A DNA stretch of 37,520 nt from a virus (Duplodnaviria; Heunggongvirae; Uroviricota; Caudoviricetes), in IMG/VR virus record IMGVR_UViG_2541047896_000017; one strand, given 5' to 3'. Positions 4,453 through 11,222 of this stretch are shown in pieces (the first letter of the stretch is position 1; every line of letters begins with the position of its first letter). A model generated the notes under the pieces. The model saw only the letters and a list, made by a program, of their open reading frames with translations, was not told the origin of the DNA and ran no database searches. The position numbers and the translations under genes are program-made.

Positions 4453-4842
4453 ATGATTGACGCTCATGACTTCACAAGATGGGTGCGCACACAGGACACC
4501 CGTCTGGCTCCCATTCTTCGGGGATTATTTGATCTCTACATTCGTGGTCGTGACAACAGAGCACGCACCACAAAACCGGAGAATGTGGATACCCTTTATT
4601 TCACAGTAGACGACTGCTACCGCGTGGACTTCACACCACACGGACTGGCGTTGCACTGCCTGACACCGCACGGCGAATCACTGCTGGCGTATTACGACTC
4701 CCCGGCCTCCGTATTTGCGGCAATGCTGGCGCATCGCACTGCTGGCGGGTGTGCCTCGCTGAGTGAATACACCGCTGAGTTTAACCGCCTTTCCGCCCTC
4801 TTCTCGCAGGAGTGGCAGCGCGTGACGGGATACCAGCCATGA
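4453..4842 (+). CDS. Hypothetical early protein, translationally coupled to A
   Basis: 129 aa ORF; its stop overlaps the A start (ATGA). Confidence 0.55.
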   Translation: MIDAHDFTRWVRTQDTRLAPILRGLFDLYIRGRDNRARTTKPENVDTLYFTVDDCYRVDFTPHGLALHCLTPHGESLLAYYDSPASVFAAMLAHRTAGGCASLSEYTAEFNRLSALFSQEWQRVTGYQP

Positions 4843-7679
4843 GTGAGTTTGCATGGAGCTGGAATGAACCACGGCCAGCCATTGATCCGGCCAGATTTAC
4901 GGAGCGCAGGCAGGAAACTGAAACCGACCTGCAACGCGCCATCCGTTACTACCTTGAGGCAGACAAAAAGGCCCAGGAAGAACAGGAAGCGAAAGAGGAA
5001 GCCTTTTTCGCACAATCCGCCATGGGTAAAAAACTCATGGCATCCCTTGAGGAAGCCGGACAGCGTGAAAAGCTGGCACAAAGCATCATCAGTAAGCGTC
5101 GGGCAACAGAACAAGACCCGGTGGCCCGTGCCTTTGCCACACTGAAGGTGCTTCCCGTTTATCTGCGAGAACCCCTGAGCCGCCACCTCTCGTTCCTGCG
5201 CAAGAAGCAGGAAGCCGATCGTCAGAAAGGCAAAAAGAGCTGGCAGGCCGAACGCTACGCGCGCGGAAACCTGCGCAAAATATTCGAACGTCTGGAGCGC
5301 ACCGACAGCCGCTGGCTGACACAGGGGTATCGCTCCCTTGCCGGACGCGAACGCCTGGACGATTTGCTTTACCTGCCGCAGCTCAACAAACACCAGATAC
5401 AGACGCTGGCCACCATGACGGCGGCGATGTTCAGCAGCACCTTCGAAAAACTCTGCGATGGCTTTGGCGCGACCGATGGTGAGCTGACCATGGATGTAAC
5501 GCTGAAGGCGTATCAGATGCTGGCCCGCATGGCGTTACACCTGCACGCCATGCCTCCACATTATGACGCACTGACAACAGATAGAGATCGGAGGAACGAA
5601 CCGGACACGGAGCTGCTGCCAGGCGCAATCCTTCGCCTGACCTGTGCTGAATGGTGGAAACGCAAACTGTGGCTGTTACGTTGCGAGTGGAGAGAAGAAC
5701 AACTCCGCGCCGCCTGTCTGGTTTCCAGAAAAACATCGCCCTATCTGAGCCAGGACGCGTTAAGCGAGTTTCGCGCACAGCGCGAGAAAACACGCGATTT
5801 CCTGAAAAGTTTCATGCTGGAAAACGAAGACGGGTTCACGATTGATCTCGAGACAGTGTATTACGCGGGAGTAAGTAACCCGGTTCACCGTAAGGCAGAA
5901 ATGATGGCCACCATGAAGGGGCTGGAACTTCTGGCCGAGGCCCGTGGCGACAAAGCGGTGTTTCTGACTGTCACCTGCCCATCAAAATACCACGCCACAA
6001 CAGAGAACGGTCATCCGAATCCCAAATGGAACGGGGCCACCATGCGCGACTCCAGCGATTACCTGGTTAACACGTTTTTTGCGGCGGTCCGCAAAAAACT
6101 GAACCGCGACGGTCTGCGCTGGTATGGCATCCGCACGGTGGAGCCTCACCATGACGGCACCGTGCACTGGCATATGATGGTCTTTGCTCATCCGGAAGAA
6201 ATCGACAGCATCGTGGCCATCACCCGCGATATTGCCATTCAGGAAGACCGCCACGAGCTGGGCAATGATATTACTCCGCGCTTTAAGGTGGAGTATGTCG
6301 ACGGCTTAAAAGGCACACCAACCAGCTATATCGCGACCTACATCGGAAAAAACCTGGACAGCCGCGCCGTGGATGGCATCGACCCGAAAACGGGCAAACC
6401 ACGCGTTGACCACGAAACCGGAAAATCAATGGCCGAGAGCGTGGAGCGCGCCATCGGCTGGGCGCGCCTTCACCGGGTCCGCCAGTTCCAGTTCTTTGGC
6501 ATCCCCTCCCGTCAGGTGTGGCGTGAACTGCGCCGCCTTGCCAGCCAGATGGCACGCAACCCGGAAGGCCCGCAACGGCTGAAGGATGACGCAATGGATG
6601 CGGTACTCGCTGCCGCTGATGCCGGGTGTTTTGCCTCCTACATTGAAAAACAGGGTGGCGTACTTGTTCCACGCAAGGACTACCTGATTCGCACCGCCTA
6701 CGACCTCGCAGATGAGCTGAACGATTACGGCGAACAGAGCGTACAGATTTACGGGATCTGGTCACCACTCATCGGGGAATCCTCCCGTGTGTGCACGCAC
6801 CCAGATAACTGGAAGCTGGTAAGACGTAAACCGGAAGCGGAAGACAGCACCCGCGAAAATGGTTTTGACCTTCAGGGCGGCCCTGCCGCCCCTTGGACTC
6901 GTGGCAATAACTGTCCCCGTGTACAGGAAACGGACAACAACGGGACAGAACAGCCGGAAGAACGGCCAGCACCGCGGCCGCAGCTTCCTGACGGCGTTGA
7001 CGTGAATGAATGGATGCGCTCACTGAAACGGCACGAACGCCGGGCGCTGATGCATTCGCTGCGTGACAAACAGGCAAAAAACAGCAGTGATGAAATGCAG
7101 AACTGGACACAGAGCCGCAAACAGCCACGGCCTTTGCCTGATAACCACGAGTTACTCGCTAAAGAATGGCGGGAGTCTGCTGAATCTCTCGGCCTGCATA
7201 TCGGTGAACAGCAGATGCAGCACCTGTTACGGGGCGGCAGTCTGTACGTTGACGGCAGCATCATTGCACCGCAGGGATTTGAAATTGTACGCAAACCAGA
7301 TACCCGCCCGGACAGCCGAATCACGCAACTCTGGCAGCGCCTGAGCCGTAATCACGGCGTAAGCAGCACGGAGATCCGCCATAACCCGGTCGCCAGCTAT
7401 CTGGAACAGCTGGGGGCATCAGACCCCGAAGCCGCCGCACACCTGGCATCCACACTTCAGCAGGACCAGAACACCATGAAAACCCCCGTTACCGTGCTTT
7501 CTGACATGCTGCGCGCCATCCGTGACGCAGAGCACGCACAGAGAATCAGTGAAACCACTGAACGCGCCCACCGCAAAGCAGACCTGCTGCGGGGTAGCCT
7601 GACCAGTGGAAACAAAAAACAGACAGAAACGGGACTCACAAATCCCGTAAATGAGCAAAAAACGTGCCGCGATATATGA
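4839..7679 (+). CDS. A: Rolling-circle replication initiator endonuclease, P2 A-like, with long C-terminal extension
   Basis: Contains TVEPHHDGTVHWHMMVF (HUH-like) and YIATYIGKN (paired tyrosines), matching recalled P2 A motifs; about 946 aa versus about 760 in P2. Confidence 0.85.
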   Translation: MSEFAWSWNEPRPAIDPARFTERRQETETDLQRAIRYYLEADKKAQEEQEAKEEAFFAQSAMGKKLMASLEEAGQREKLAQSIISKRRATEQDPVARAFATLKVLPVYLREPLSRHLSFLRKKQEADRQKGKKSWQAERYARGNLRKIFERLERTDSRWLTQGYRSLAGRERLDDLLYLPQLNKHQIQTLATMTAAMFSSTFEKLCDGFGATDGELTMDVTLKAYQMLARMALHLHAMPPHYDALTTDRDRRNEPDTELLPGAILRLTCAEWWKRKLWLLRCEWREEQLRAACLVSRKTSPYLSQDALSEFRAQREKTRDFLKSFMLENEDGFTIDLETVYYAGVSNPVHRKAEMMATMKGLELLAEARGDKAVFLTVTCPSKYHATTENGHPNPKWNGATMRDSSDYLVNTFFAAVRKKLNRDGLRWYGIRTVEPHHDGTVHWHMMVFAHPEEIDSIVAITRDIAIQEDRHELGNDITPRFKVEYVDGLKGTPTSYIATYIGKNLDSRAVDGIDPKTGKPRVDHETGKSMAESVERAIGWARLHRVRQFQFFGIPSRQVWRELRRLASQMARNPEGPQRLKDDAMDAVLAAADAGCFASYIEKQGGVLVPRKDYLIRTAYDLADELNDYGEQSVQIYGIWSPLIGESSRVCTHPDNWKLVRRKPEAEDSTRENGFDLQGGPAAPWTRGNNCPRVQETDNNGTEQPEERPAPRPQLPDGVDVNEWMRSLKRHERRALMHSLRDKQAKNSSDEMQNWTQSRKQPRPLPDNHELLAKEWRESAESLGLHIGEQQMQHLLRGGSLYVDGSIIAPQGFEIVRKPDTRPDSRITQLWQRLSRNHGVSSTEIRHNPVASYLEQLGASDPEAAAHLASTLQQDQNTMKTPVTVLSDMLRAIRDAEHAQRISETTERAHRKADLLRGSLTSGNKKQTETGLTNPVNEQKTCRDI

Positions 7680-7755
7680 AGCGCGCACAAAACAGGCAAA
7701 AGCGGGATTTAAAAATCCTGTAACCGATTAATTAATCAACATAAGGAAAAGCGAC
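7631..7755. promoter_or_regulatory. Candidate parC-like centromere/promoter region upstream of parM
   Basis: Two copies of AAATCCyGTAA (about 7645 and 7709), each inside a short palindrome (ACGGGA..TCCCGT; GGATTTAAAAATCC). Confidence 0.3.
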
Positions 7756-8715
7756 ATGAAAATTTGTATCGACGACGGCTCCACCAACATCAAGCTGGCA
7801 TGGACTGAGAACGGCGAACGCCGCAACGCCATCAGCCCGAACAGCTTCAAGTCGGAATGGTCTGCGCCGTTCGGTGGCACGCAGCCCGCGAACTACATGC
7901 TTGATGGCGTGCGCTATGGTTTTGATCCGGTCAGCGATCGCTTTGTCCAGACGACCGACACGCAATACCAGTACAGCGATGTGAATATAATTGCCATTCA
8001 TCACGCGCTGGTCAAATCAGGCATCACACCACAGGAAGTGGATGTGGTTGTCACCCTGCCACTAAGCGAGTATTTCGATACAAACGCACAGCCGGACATG
8101 GCCAACATCAACCGCAAAAAAGCGAACGTCATGCGCCCGGTGGAGTACCAGAACGGCGAAGCATTCACTATCCGTAACGTACGGGTTATGCCTGAATCCA
8201 TTCCGGCTGGCTTTAAGGCACTGGCTGACATGAGTCCGTTTGAATCCCTGCTGATTGTGGATTTGGGCGGAACCACGCTGGATGTGGCAAAGGTTCAGGG
8301 GCAACTGGCAGGTATCAGCCAGGTGTTTTGCGATCCACACGTGGGCGTTTCTCTGATGGCCGATGCCGTACTGTCGGTGATGGCCACTAACGGTATGCGC
8401 ACCAGTCACCACATCGCCAATACCATTATCGAACATCGCCATGATGAAGCCTGGCTGCGCCAGCACATCCACAATGACGCGCATTACGCCAGCCTGATGG
8501 CGGTAATTCGTGAAAAGGAAGAAACACTGAAACAACGCGTGATCCGCGCGCTGGCGGGTTTTTCGGGTTACGGGCGGGTGATGGTTGTCGGTGGAGGGGC
8601 GGAGATTGTGGCACCCGCTATCCGCGAAGCCTGCGGAGTTAATGCGACTTTCATCGCGGACGGGGTGCCACAGTTTGCTCTGGTTAATGGGCTGTACGCA
8701 ATGGACAAGGAGTAA
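7756..8715 (+). CDS. parM: Actin-like segregation ATPase, ParM/StbA family
   Basis: 319 aa; N-terminus MKICIDDGSTNIKLAW and motifs VMPESIPAGF, LLIVDLGGTTLD, VMVVGGGAE closely resemble recalled plasmid R1 ParM. Confidence 0.8.
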   Translation: MKICIDDGSTNIKLAWTENGERRNAISPNSFKSEWSAPFGGTQPANYMLDGVRYGFDPVSDRFVQTTDTQYQYSDVNIIAIHHALVKSGITPQEVDVVVTLPLSEYFDTNAQPDMANINRKKANVMRPVEYQNGEAFTIRNVRVMPESIPAGFKALADMSPFESLLIVDLGGTTLDVAKVQGQLAGISQVFCDPHVGVSLMADAVLSVMATNGMRTSHHIANTIIEHRHDEAWLRQHIHNDAHYASLMAVIREKEETLKQRVIRALAGFSGYGRVMVVGGGAEIVAPAIREACGVNATFIADGVPQFALVNGLYAMDKE

Positions 8716-8719
8716 ACCA

Positions 8720-9031
8720 ATGACGACTCCAACCAGACGGATAAGTTTCTATCTGAAGCCCACCGCCGTCAAGAACGAAGGAGAAGCATGCGCCTGGCTG
8801 GACAGCCTTACACCAGAAGCCCGCAAAAGCGGCCAACGCGTGGCTTTTCTGGCCGGGCTGGCACTTCTGAAAATGAATCCGGCAGAGGCTTATCGACTGG
8901 CTGCATGGGCTGGTGATGAAGCGTTATCAGTGACACAAACCAGGACAGAACGCCCCGCATCACAGCCAGTATCAACCGCACAGATAACCAGTCAGATGGC
9001 CGGAAATATCCGGGCGTTATTTCCTGAATAA
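8720..9031 (+). CDS. parR: ParR-like centromere-binding adaptor
   Basis: 103 aa immediately downstream of parM; N-terminal RRISFYLKP...LTPEARKSGQRVAFLAGLALL resembles recalled R1 ParR. Confidence 0.6.
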   Translation: MTTPTRRISFYLKPTAVKNEGEACAWLDSLTPEARKSGQRVAFLAGLALLKMNPAEAYRLAAWAGDEALSVTQTRTERPASQPVSTAQITSQMAGNIRALFPE

Positions 9032-9094
9032 CACAACATCAGGGCGAGTTCGCCCTGCTCTCCACCTCAGAACATAAACAAGGAGAACGACTTA

Positions 9095-9685
9095 ATGAGC
9101 GAAATCAACTATCAGGCATTACGTGAACGTTATTCACCTGTGCCAGTACCGAAATGCCCTATTTGCGGCGAGGAAATGTCAATTCAGCGAATATCTGGAG
9201 CACAGGTTGTTTATGCCTGCTCCGGTTATGGTGATGATGGAGATTTCAAAATTGGCCGAACTCTTGCTGACGAACATTATGAAAAATCACGCGTAACAGT
9301 GTTGGATGTCGGGGATCCTGAAGTATTGGCGCTACTTGATTGGCTGGAAACCAAAGACAACCGAATCGCTGAACTGGAAAAAATCGCCACTGACTATGCA
9401 CTTAAATTCCAGAAAGCACAGGACGCATTAAAGCATGCCGCTTTGCTGCATAGCAGGACGGCGCAACAAACAAATAATTTTGCAGTATCGCTTCCGGACA
9501 TAAGCGAATATTTCATTAATGACGTATTTCAGCCCTTGCGATACGAGCGGGATGTTGAAAGAGCCATCATAAAGGCTGGCGGAAAAGCATTGTGGCAGGA
9601 GAAACACGAGGACAGAACGCATCAGTCATGCGATGTAAATTGTGGATGGTTTAGCCCACTGACGACAGATAAAAATAACACCTGA
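9095..9685 (+). CDS. Hypothetical protein with N-terminal Cys cluster (possible zinc ribbon); accessory gene between A and Q
   Basis: 196 aa ORF with RBS aaggaga; CPICGEEMS...YACSGYG motif. Confidence 0.55.
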   Translation: MSEINYQALRERYSPVPVPKCPICGEEMSIQRISGAQVVYACSGYGDDGDFKIGRTLADEHYEKSRVTVLDVGDPEVLALLDWLETKDNRIAELEKIATDYALKFQKAQDALKHAALLHSRTAQQTNNFAVSLPDISEYFINDVFQPLRYERDVERAIIKAGGKALWQEKHEDRTHQSCDVNCGWFSPLTTDKNNT

Positions 9686-9689
9686 TCCC

Positions 9690-10175
9690 CCTCAAACCAG
9701 GGCGATAATCGCACATCGCCCTGCTGCACAATAGTGCACAAATTTGCACAATTTTTTTGAACGAATTTTTGCCCTTCCAGCCCGCGTGGCGGCTGGATCC
9801 GTCAAGGATCCGTGCGTGCACAAAAAAACGCGCTTTTTCTGCGCGCAGGTGACGGGGGAACAGCCCGCGTTTCAGGGGGTAAATAGCGTTCCCTTAACGA
9901 TGTCGCAGCGACACGACAGAATGGCCGTATTTCTCACGCTGAGCGTGAAAAATACGTGAGGGATTCTGATTTGATGGGGTGAAAGGTAAGGCCGTCAAAA
10001 TCGCACTGAGGCGGCGAGAACATGCAGTCAACGCGGTGGGATTGCGTAAGAGTCTGACCGTCGATGGTGGCGATAAACTGGAAGGCGTCGTGAAATTATC
10101 TGACTGATACAGGAGCTGGAGAGTCGGGGCATAAATTTTTTATGCCCCGGCGAAGCAGCAGACAAGCGAAGCGCG
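9690..10175. other. Non-coding region expected to contain the cos packaging site
   Basis: In P2, cos lies adjacent to the 3' end of Q; region has GTGCACAA repeats, GGATCC palindromes and a 22-nt palindrome at 10126-10147. Exact cos not identified. Confidence 0.4.
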
Positions 10176-11222
10176 TCAGGATGTGGGCTGGATGTCTAAC
10201 AGTGCGTAAGGGTTAAAGCGGATCACCTCTTCGCCAAGCCAGTCATTGATGTGCTTCATGGCCTCCATGACGGGCATCAGCTCGTTAATTGCGTAAACCC
10301 GCGCGGCCTTCTCCACATCACCAAACGCACTTTTTTCACCCGGCATCGCCCCCATCAGTTGCGGCGGAACGCGGTGCGCAGCCAGCACATCATCACGGGA
10401 TGCCGCTTTAACATTCATGAACTCATCCTTTGCGGTGATCTGCTGGAACGGCAAAATTTGCACCCCCTCTTTGCCCCCGTTGGGCGCATGAATGAGCACG
10501 TTTTTAAACGCACCACCACCACGCGCACCCTGTAGCGTTTCTTTCAGGGAGTCCATGCTTTCGCGGTTTACCTGCGCTGCACCGATGTAGATGATGCACC
10601 CGGCGTGGGATCCGTTGTCGTAATACAGTTTTCTGAACATGTCCGCCGAATGAGACAGGCTGGCCGAGAGTAATGCGCCGAGATATTCCGGCATGCCGTA
10701 GATTTCCTGGTTAATGTCAGGATTCATCAGGTGACACACTTTGCCTGGGCGAAACTGAAACGCATCCTTGCCATCCTGCACATACCACCATGATTCAAGA
10801 TCGCTTCCGCGTCGCATGTATTTCGCCAGGGCGTGCCGTAATTTAAGCGGTTCGCCGAGCATATTGCTTCGAAGCTCAAGGAATGCGTTACCGAACACAA
10901 ACCAGTCCAGCGCCAGCGCCGAGAAATCCTGCCGGGAAAGCAGCGGGTGCGGGATGTAGCAACCGAGTAATACATTGCGCTTAAAGTAAAGCGCAGATTG
11001 ATGCCAGGACGTTTGCCGGGCAGCTCTTGCCAGACCGTACCAGTCCACCGGGGTTTCATACCACCGCCCGTTATCAGCACAGTACATATTGTCCAGCAGG
11101 TCATGCCCGGTCAGGCGGTAAGGACCATCAAATGTGAATGCACTGAGCGATGATTCTTTCCTGAGCGCATCAGCGAGATCAATGCGTGAACTCATGCGCA
11201 CTTTTTTATTTTTTCTGCTCAT
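10176..11222 (-). CDS. Q: Portal protein, P2 Q-like
   Basis: 348 aa, downstream of terminase ATPase gene on the same strand; size and position match P2 Q. Confidence 0.8.
   Translation of the reverse strand: MSRKNKKVRMSSRIDLADALRKESSLSAFTFDGPYRLTGHDLLDNMYCADNGRWYETPVDWYGLARAARQTSWHQSALYFKRNVLLGCYIPHPLLSRQDFSALALDWFVFGNAFLELRSNMLGEPLKLRHALAKYMRRGSDLESWWYVQDGKDAFQFRPGKVCHLMNPDINQEIYGMPEYLGALLSASLSHSADMFRKLYYDNGSHAGCIIYIGAAQVNRESMDSLKETLQGARGGGAFKNVLIHAPNGGKEGVQILPFQQITAKDEFMNVKAASRDDVLAAHRVPPQLMGAMPGEKSAFGDVEKAARVYAINELMPVMEAMKHINDWLGEEVIRFNPYALLDIQPTS

Follow-up and report, generated by a model that had tools for sequence, protein, structure and literature searches.

The DNA analyzed here, a 37,520-nucleotide stretch that we call the window, comes from Escherichia virus P88_4B11 (Xuanwuvirus, Peduoviridae), a P2-like phage, and in the region of interest it is 100% identical to NC_049391. 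The gene under study lies on the plus strand and, just as the preliminary description had read it, spans an open reading frame of 196 amino acids at positions 9095-9685. It is identical to HYP18_gp56 of P88_4B11, the final gene before the right end of that record. According to the ORF list, no rival frame longer than 64 amino acids exists in this interval on either strand. A promoter scan ahead of the gene revealed no sigma-70-like site, and an Rfam scan of positions 7500-10300 matched no RNA family. The genes and sequence elements of the locus are as follows.

4812-7679, plus strand: gene A, upstream of the Ead/Ea22-family gene and on the same strand
7756-8715, plus strand: parM (PF06406, E = 1e-82; PF21523, E = 1e-68)
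8720-9031, plus strand: parR/StbB (PF10784, E = 8e-23)
9040-9057, plus strand: upstream hairpin CAGGGCGAgttCGCCCTG in the spacer between parR and the gene; left edge of the variable cargo
9080-9085, plus strand: ribosome-binding site AAGGAG, read from the sequence, 9 nt upstream of the ATG
9095-9685, plus strand: Ead/Ea22-family gene, 196 amino acids, ATG start and TGA stop (from the ORF list)
9698-9723, plus strand: downstream hairpin CAGGGCGAU..AUCGCCCUG (RNA fold z = -3.7); right edge of the variable cargo
9734-9759, plus strand: terminator-like hairpin GTGCACAAATTTGCAC followed by a T7 run, found by consensus scan and conserved in related loci

A variable cargo slot near cos

The genes are arranged in the order A, parM, parR and the Ead/Ea22-family gene, after which ∼490 nt of intergenic DNA lead to Q and P on the opposite strand. 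In P2, the interval between A and cos holds orf91, tin and old. The position in P88_4B11 matches that of the gpA-gpQ cos-proximal variable hotspot known from the literature on P2-like phages (PMC9122126). The earlier proposal that the gene sits, together with parMR, in the A-Q locus where P2 carries tin and old is therefore correct.

The gene has a GC content of 45.2%, compared with 54-57% in A, parM, parR, Q and P, a difference of about 9-12 points. This low value is a signature of recently acquired, horizontally gained cargo. DNA matches to the gene are present in 339 of 5426 complete E. coli genomes, and in 134 of these the match is full length. The parMR DNA is near-identical in ∼1360 of the 5426 genomes, almost all of these copies being chromosomal, and only 234 of the parMR matches run on through the Ead/Ea22-family gene. 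The parMR count is in keeping with published work in which a partition system is attributed to about a quarter of P2-like phages, with the suggestion that these might persist as plasmids (PMC9122126).

In other prophages, the same slot is filled either by an IS element or by genes for a ClpX-type zinc-finger protein and a hypothetical protein, and in prophage L002 the Ead/Ea22-family gene is a pseudogene (L002:6001-6372). The low GC content, the presence of other cargo in the slot and the pseudogenization in some prophages establish that this is an accessory, replaceable cargo gene and not a core gene. A protein subfamily that shares the coiled coil and C-terminal module of the P88_4B11 protein (the CC+CTD subfamily, described below) supplies the final gene of the early strand ahead of cos/Q, whether or not the P2-like locus has parMR. 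In L016 and L017, it occurs in loci with parMR plus two extra genes, and in L014 and L015 it occurs in a P2-like lineage without any parMR. Because the subfamily is also found in P2-like phages that have no parMR, the gene is cargo of the hotspot and not a component of parMR.

In the prophage of E. coli 2014EL-1345-2 (L011:5340-6076), the slot after parR encodes a 110-aa protein and a hypothetical 135-aa protein. The former combines a coiled coil in its N-terminal part with a C4 zinc finger of the ClpX type. It is a second small zinc-finger cargo in this position, unrelated to the Ead/Ea22-family protein.

The two hairpins that flank the gene have the stem CAGGGCG...CGCCCTG in common. The RNA fold of positions 9028-9100, which include the upstream hairpin, has a predicted energy of -18.1 kcal/mol (z = -3.2). 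Loci with different cargo are alike through the hairpin at 9040-9057 and the ribosome-binding site, which is kept in related P2-like loci as far as the start codon, and they diverge around that codon. Similarity resumes from CCAGGGCG onward, at the hairpin at 9698-9723. Since the hairpins coincide with the points where P2-like loci diverge and reconverge, these same-stem structures are suggested to be cassette borders or recombination hot spots. The rightward transcript probably ends at the terminator-like hairpin at 9734-9759.

Family membership and modular architecture

The protein was initially described as unknown, with an otherwise unrecognisable sequence behind its N-terminal cysteines, and a remote homology search was proposed. 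That search contradicts the description, as it yields a clear assignment to the Ead/Ea22 family. Pfam PF13935 (Ead/Ea22-like) matches with 113 bits against a cut-off of 27 (E = 2.1e-32), with amino acids 2-140 aligned to model positions 1-134, and the N-terminal domain by itself scores 69.7 bits on model positions 1-74. A match to PHROG phrog_368 was obtained at 1e-29, and the RefSeq label for the same gene, in 134 complete E. coli genomes, is "ead/Ea22-like family protein." A search of 5.8 billion proteins returned 515 matches, and the names among the 120 listed are ead/Ea22-like, EA22-like or hypothetical/phage-like protein, with no other function. Judged by these profile and sequence matches, the P88_4B11 protein is a clear member of the Ead/Ea22 family and its identity is secure. 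The protein, the family and the genomic arrangement are all already catalogued. A false lead has thus been cleared: the protein is not dark matter but the product of a catalogued Ead/Ea22-family gene, real but ordinary.

Searches for other functions gave little. NCBIfam produced no usable match to the full protein, no PADLOC model matched, and no enzymatic, membrane or defense domain was detected with Pfam, NCBIfam or PADLOC. A Pfam match to Lar (restriction alleviation) was rejected, as it has an E value of 0.11 and is confined to the CxxC knuckle. A PDB sequence search with the full-length protein found nothing below E = 1. The AF2 model of the full-length protein (22 sequences) has a mean pLDDT of only 59; Foldseek comparison of this model with the PDB found nothing at E < 1, and the structure of the lambda Ea22 C-terminal domain was not matched.

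The domains and segments of the protein correspond to the following positions.

9095-9316, plus strand: N1 domain (aa 1-74), which opens with the family-wide helix MSEINYQALRE, followed by a zinc-knuckle with a beta-hairpin and then by one short helix and one strand
9155-9277, plus strand: putative CCCH metal site, formed by C21 (9155-9157), C24 (9164-9166), C42 (9218-9220) and H61 (9275-9277)
9317-9463, plus strand: coiled-coil segment (aa 75-123), a single helix in AF2 with a heptad pattern
9476-9595, plus strand: C-terminal module (aa 128-167), FAVSLPD..YFINDVFQPLRYERDVERAIIKAGGKALW, delimited by phmmer and AF2
9596-9682, plus strand: tail (aa 168-196), disordered (pLDDT ∼30) and poorly conserved

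Several family motifs can be located on this map. The conserved helix MS-x-I-[DN]-x-QALRE is present at the N terminus, where residues 1-11 agree with lambda Ea22 at 10 of 11 positions. The junction DPEVLALLDWLE ahead of the coiled coil aligns with the junctions of all module types (family motif DP-x-V-[IL]-ALLD-x-LE). The terminal basic-Gly-Glu (+GE) motif reported for four compared lambdoid Ea22 proteins (PMC7093339) is absent; the protein ends instead in ...AGGKALWQEK plus the tail of 26-29 residues. Its sole motif related to +GE is ERAIIKAGGK. A hybrid protein that matches the C-terminal module (P0134) ends in ...ERAVIRAGLKIKGD, an end that ties ERAIIKAGGK to the +GE motif at the terminus of the lambdoid proteins. 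The gene lies between parR and cos/Q and not in the exo-xis (early left) region typical of lambdoid phages, although lambdoid and P22-like phages do have relatives of its modules in their early regions.

The arrangement of these parts varies among relatives. Module combinations were counted over the matches listed, which are the best 120 of 515. The N1 domain is joined to unrelated downstream parts in 52 of the 120, to the coiled coil in 23, and to both the coiled coil and the C-terminal module in 10, four of which also have the tail. Conversely, the coiled coil, C-terminal module and tail stand behind three other types of N-terminal module in 34 of these matches, and one further match has the coiled coil and C-terminal module behind another N-terminal module and is without the tail. 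From these sequence comparisons, the P88_4B11 protein is a mosaic of N1, coiled coil and C-terminal module plus tail, each part of which recombines independently.

The coiled coil has hydrophobic residues at 11 of the 14 a/d positions in the best heptad register. The C-terminal module is predicted by AF2 (pLDDT ∼72) to be a small alpha/beta unit of short helix, strand and helix. It is rare, with only 22 phmmer matches among 1.84 billion representative proteins. In 20 of the 22, the module ends four or fewer residues from the C terminus; the proteins that carry it are 68-322 aa long and have unrelated N-terminal parts. It is internal in one weak match, a protein of 874 aa. The carriers include a nin-region protein of the P22-like phage SE1 and, in phage PhiR46_1, an "Ea22" whose gene adjoins that of exonuclease VIII.

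The tail is missing in P0007, P0010 and P0026, and its C183 is replaced by arginine in the largest cluster; the E. albertii sequence also differs. A second zinc site formed by C179 and C183 was considered and rejected, given the disorder of the tail and the lack of conservation of both cysteines.

Not all copies of the gene are intact. Truncated, frameshifted and read-through alleles occur (P0008, P0062 and P0019/P0024/P0032), and their presence in some prophages shows that the gene decays or drifts in part of the population. The alleles with stop-codon read-through run on into ...CSPSNQGDNRASPFCTIVHKFAQFF.

The N-terminal domain and its putative metal site

The fold of the N1 domain is predicted with a pLDDT of 88.3 and a pTM of 0.67 (AF2, aa 1-86, 25 sequences). 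The model includes a helix at residues 6-13 and a hairpin at residues 29-41 (pLDDT ∼90). The N-terminal cysteine cluster noted at the outset is real, although it consists of three cysteines (C21-x2-C24 and C42) rather than four. Together with H61, these residues provide four conserved candidate ligands in a knuckle-plus-hairpin arrangement, as expected for a zinc finger.

All 59 distinct copies of N1 retain C21, C24, C42 and H61 without exception. These four residues are also invariant in 12 distant standalone homologs from environmental phages, which are 35-46% identical to N1. In alignments with these homologs, the full set of invariant residues is Y13, P19, C21, C24, G25, C42, R55, H61, Y62, S65 and D74. 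The invariance of the four candidate ligands in close as well as distant homologs is far beyond chance, and it likely reflects a CCCH metal site in an autonomous domain.

The standalone homologs were reached through a tblastn search with N1, which gave a 40%-identical match in LR745208, a 485-kb uncultured phage genome (L007:2908-3375). This match led to a small family of standalone N1-like proteins of 100-157 aa from environmental phages (P0142-P0153), none of which matched a Pfam family. With its invariant CCCH site and its existence as a standalone protein in distant phages, N1 is an independent functional unit. The genes for the standalone homologs lie within runs of small unannotated co-directional genes, and one of them is situated a few genes downstream of an ERF recombinase.

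Among known systems, small zinc fingers of the zinc-ribbon and Zf-GRF type are counted among the closest to N1, although the likeness to Zf-GRF is weak. No match of N1 to a curated zinc-ribbon family was obtained, and no known fold relative of N1 was found. The best hit of a PDB sequence search with the N1 profile had E = 0.05 and involved the zinc knuckle only.

The tblastn matches to N1 include phages of the ES18, D6 and ST64B types, whereas 933W and Phi24B are not among them. The match in the P1-like phage D6 suggests, at the sequence level, that the module also circulates in phage-plasmids. An Ea22-like gene with the same type of N-terminal domain was also seen on the 100-kb plasmid p504211_100 (L004:6000-6566), where its neighbors are small hypothetical genes, a DUF551 fragment and an S24 peptidase gene.

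Comparison with lambda Ea22 and possible functions

Lambda Ea22 and the P88_4B11 protein share PF13935 and the same general layout, in which a long coiled coil connects a short N-terminal region to a small C-terminal domain. Both proteins are acidic (the P88_4B11 protein has a pI of 5.15) and are encoded by non-essential early genes. Direct identity to lambda Ea22 (NP_040612) in BLASTP is limited to residues 1-11, and there is no detectable sequence similarity past residue 11. Beyond this point, homology is supported by the Pfam profile and by mosaic intermediates. For example, the natural chimera P0065 joins an 87%-identical N1 to an authentic lambda coiled coil and C-terminal domain, including the HRYYG(V/I)GG loop named in the NMR study of the lambda protein (PMC10834534). 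The differences are considerable: lambda Ea22 has no CCCH domain and its N-terminal portion is described as truncated (PMC7093339), its C-terminal domain is of a different kind and ends in a KGE motif that the P88_4B11 protein lacks, and its gene lies in the lambdoid exo-xis region, whereas the P88_4B11 gene is in the P2 gpA-gpQ hotspot.

[quoted passage not shown] The prediction for their N-terminal domain is an autonomously folding unit of one helix and three strands (PMC7093339, PMC10834534). These N-terminal domains are other module types than N1, as indicated for 933W and Phi24B by their absence from the N1 tblastn matches, and the C-terminal domains differ as well and end in +GE.

Functional data on the family come from only two studies, both of lambdoid proteins. 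Full-length lambda Ea22 is a tetramer, as are a few purified Stx-phage homologs, whereas the C-terminal domain alone is a dimer and is inactive; yeast two-hybrid screens with lambda Ea22 recovered no partners (PMC10834534). Deletion of ea22 from lambda or Phi24B leads to a shorter latent period, a larger burst and lower host survival (PMC7093339). The lambda deletion lowers the lysogen yield at all multiplicities of infection (m.o.i.), whereas the Phi24B deletion lowers it only at m.o.i. 5 and 10 and raises it at m.o.i. 1 (PMC7093339). Of the three functions offered in the preliminary description (exclusion, anti-defense or regulatory), only the regulatory one has experimental support within the family, through these deletions.

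Judging from the family, the P88_4B11 protein is most likely an oligomeric binding scaffold without enzymatic activity that would tune the choice between lytic and lysogenic development, an interpretation to which we would give about an even chance. The gene would be co-transcribed with A and parMR, given their shared strand and the lack of a promoter-like site. The coiled coil might then assemble the protein into an oligomer, as in the tetramers of lambda Ea22 and a few Stx-phage homologs. Such an oligomer would display several copies of the zinc-stabilized N-terminal domain and of the small C-terminal module, and these may bind a host or phage partner, either protein or nucleic acid. The net effect would be to slow lytic development and to favor host survival and lysogeny, as with lambda Ea22 and partly with Phi24B Ea22. 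The transfer of phenotype is weak, since what the studied lambda and Phi24B proteins have in common with the P88_4B11 protein is limited to residues 1-11 and the general architecture; its N1, coiled-coil sequence and C-terminal domain are not theirs. P2-like phages decide between lysis and lysogeny with a C/Cox switch, which is different from that of lambda.

A clearly less probable alternative is that the protein acts against defense systems. An oligomeric Ea22 scaffold with swappable N- and C-terminal modules could neutralize immune proteins of the host or of rival prophages, with an arms race driving the shuffling. The extensive module shuffling is consistent with this explanation, as are the acidic character of the protein, the residence of the gene in a hotspot rich in defense and counter-defense genes (PMC9122126) and the relatives of N1 and of the C-terminal domain in recombination-associated early regions. 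According to a 2026 preprint, Oad2 (HK446 gp27), an anti-OLD protein, is a relative of P22 EaE, and Oad2 is reported to be fused to an EaD/Ea22 protein in some phages. Like the P88_4B11 protein, Oad2/EaE is a small early protein whose gene lies in a variable region associated with recombination. However, there is no convincing similarity to Oad2, no protein with N1 or a C-terminal domain of the P88_4B11 type is known for such activity, and the lysogen is just as likely as the infecting phage to benefit from a prophage gene in the P2 hotspot.

Homology to Oad2/EaE was not accepted, as the best pairwise alignment is a gappy one of 23.5 bits that covers only amino acids 8-81 (N1 and junction). 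The weakly aligning region was seen again in P0061 and P0104. Oad2 and the P88_4B11 protein have no Pfam family in common, and no link of the latter to OLD was found.

In its specific form, this alternative holds that the CC+CTD subfamily of the P2 hotspot, with at least four alternative N-terminal domains, is an immune-evasion or immune-modulating scaffold, which we judge unlikely. It is similarly doubtful that the CCCH N-terminal domain and the C-terminal module bind and neutralize defense proteins of the host or of rival phages, or nucleic-acid triggers. An immune scaffold would explain the module shuffling and the residence in a defense/counter-defense hotspot. If it were real, the N-terminal domain would be a new zinc-binding fold, shared with small environmental-phage proteins including one from a 485-kb genome. 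Moreover, if Ea22 scaffolds do carry anti-defense modules, as the Oad2 preprint hints, the P2-hotspot subfamily would lend itself well to a test of this idea in a phage whose lysogeny switch is not that of lambda.

For Ea22 proteins generally, the analysis makes three modest additions that could help to attack the molecular mechanism: the CCCH definition of the N-terminal domain with its standalone relatives, the recurrence of the subfamily by cos in P2-like phages, and the hairpin-bounded cargo slot.

There is only a slim chance that the gene encodes a lysogenic-conversion protein that blocks superinfecting phages, a functional analog of Tin and Old. It does occupy the same cos-proximal gpA-gpQ hotspot, as equally non-essential cargo, and many cargos of this hotspot are anti-phage systems (PMC9122126). 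The tin and old genes of P2, however, lie on the opposite strand with their own promoter, whereas the P88_4B11 gene follows the early genes on their strand without a promoter-like site. Old is an ATPase-TOPRIM nuclease, and the P88_4B11 protein, unlike Old, has no enzymatic domain; nor does it have a membrane domain or a PADLOC match. A likeness to Tin or Old was rejected, with BLASTP E values > 2 against each.

We consider it very improbable that the protein is an accessory of ParMR, serving as an adaptor or regulator at the centromere of the partition cassette. The gene is directly downstream from parM/parR and co-directional with them in P88_4B11, L002, L003 and L016, but only ∼234 of the ∼1360 parMR-bearing genomes extend through it, the slot can hold unrelated genes, and the CC+CTD subfamily occurs in P2-like phages without parMR. 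ParMRC systems such as that of plasmid R1 are not known to require a third protein, which counts further against this role. Equally hard to credit is a decaying or neutral mosaic remnant without selected function in P88_4B11, as might be read from the truncated, frameshifted and read-through variants (P0008, P0062, P0019 and L002) and the non-conserved, disordered tail, because the ORF is intact with a strong ribosome-binding site, full-length copies exist in 134 complete genomes, the putative functional residues are invariant down to 35% identity and the N1 fold is predicted with confidence.

Two sets of repeats were also noted in the surrounding DNA. An inverted repeat of 15 nt, near-perfect and interrupted by a single nucleotide (CGTATTTCTCACGCT A AGCGTGAAAAATACG), is located at 9926-9956, between the Ead/Ea22-family gene and Q and near the expected position of cos. 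Two copies of a 38-nt element, 79% identical and each with a hairpin (ACGGGAnnnnnnnATCCCGT-like), are present at 7613-7650, in the 3′ end of gene A, and at 7686-7723, in the 76-nt spacer just upstream of parM. These elements could be a parC-like centromere or the promoter of the ParMR cassette.
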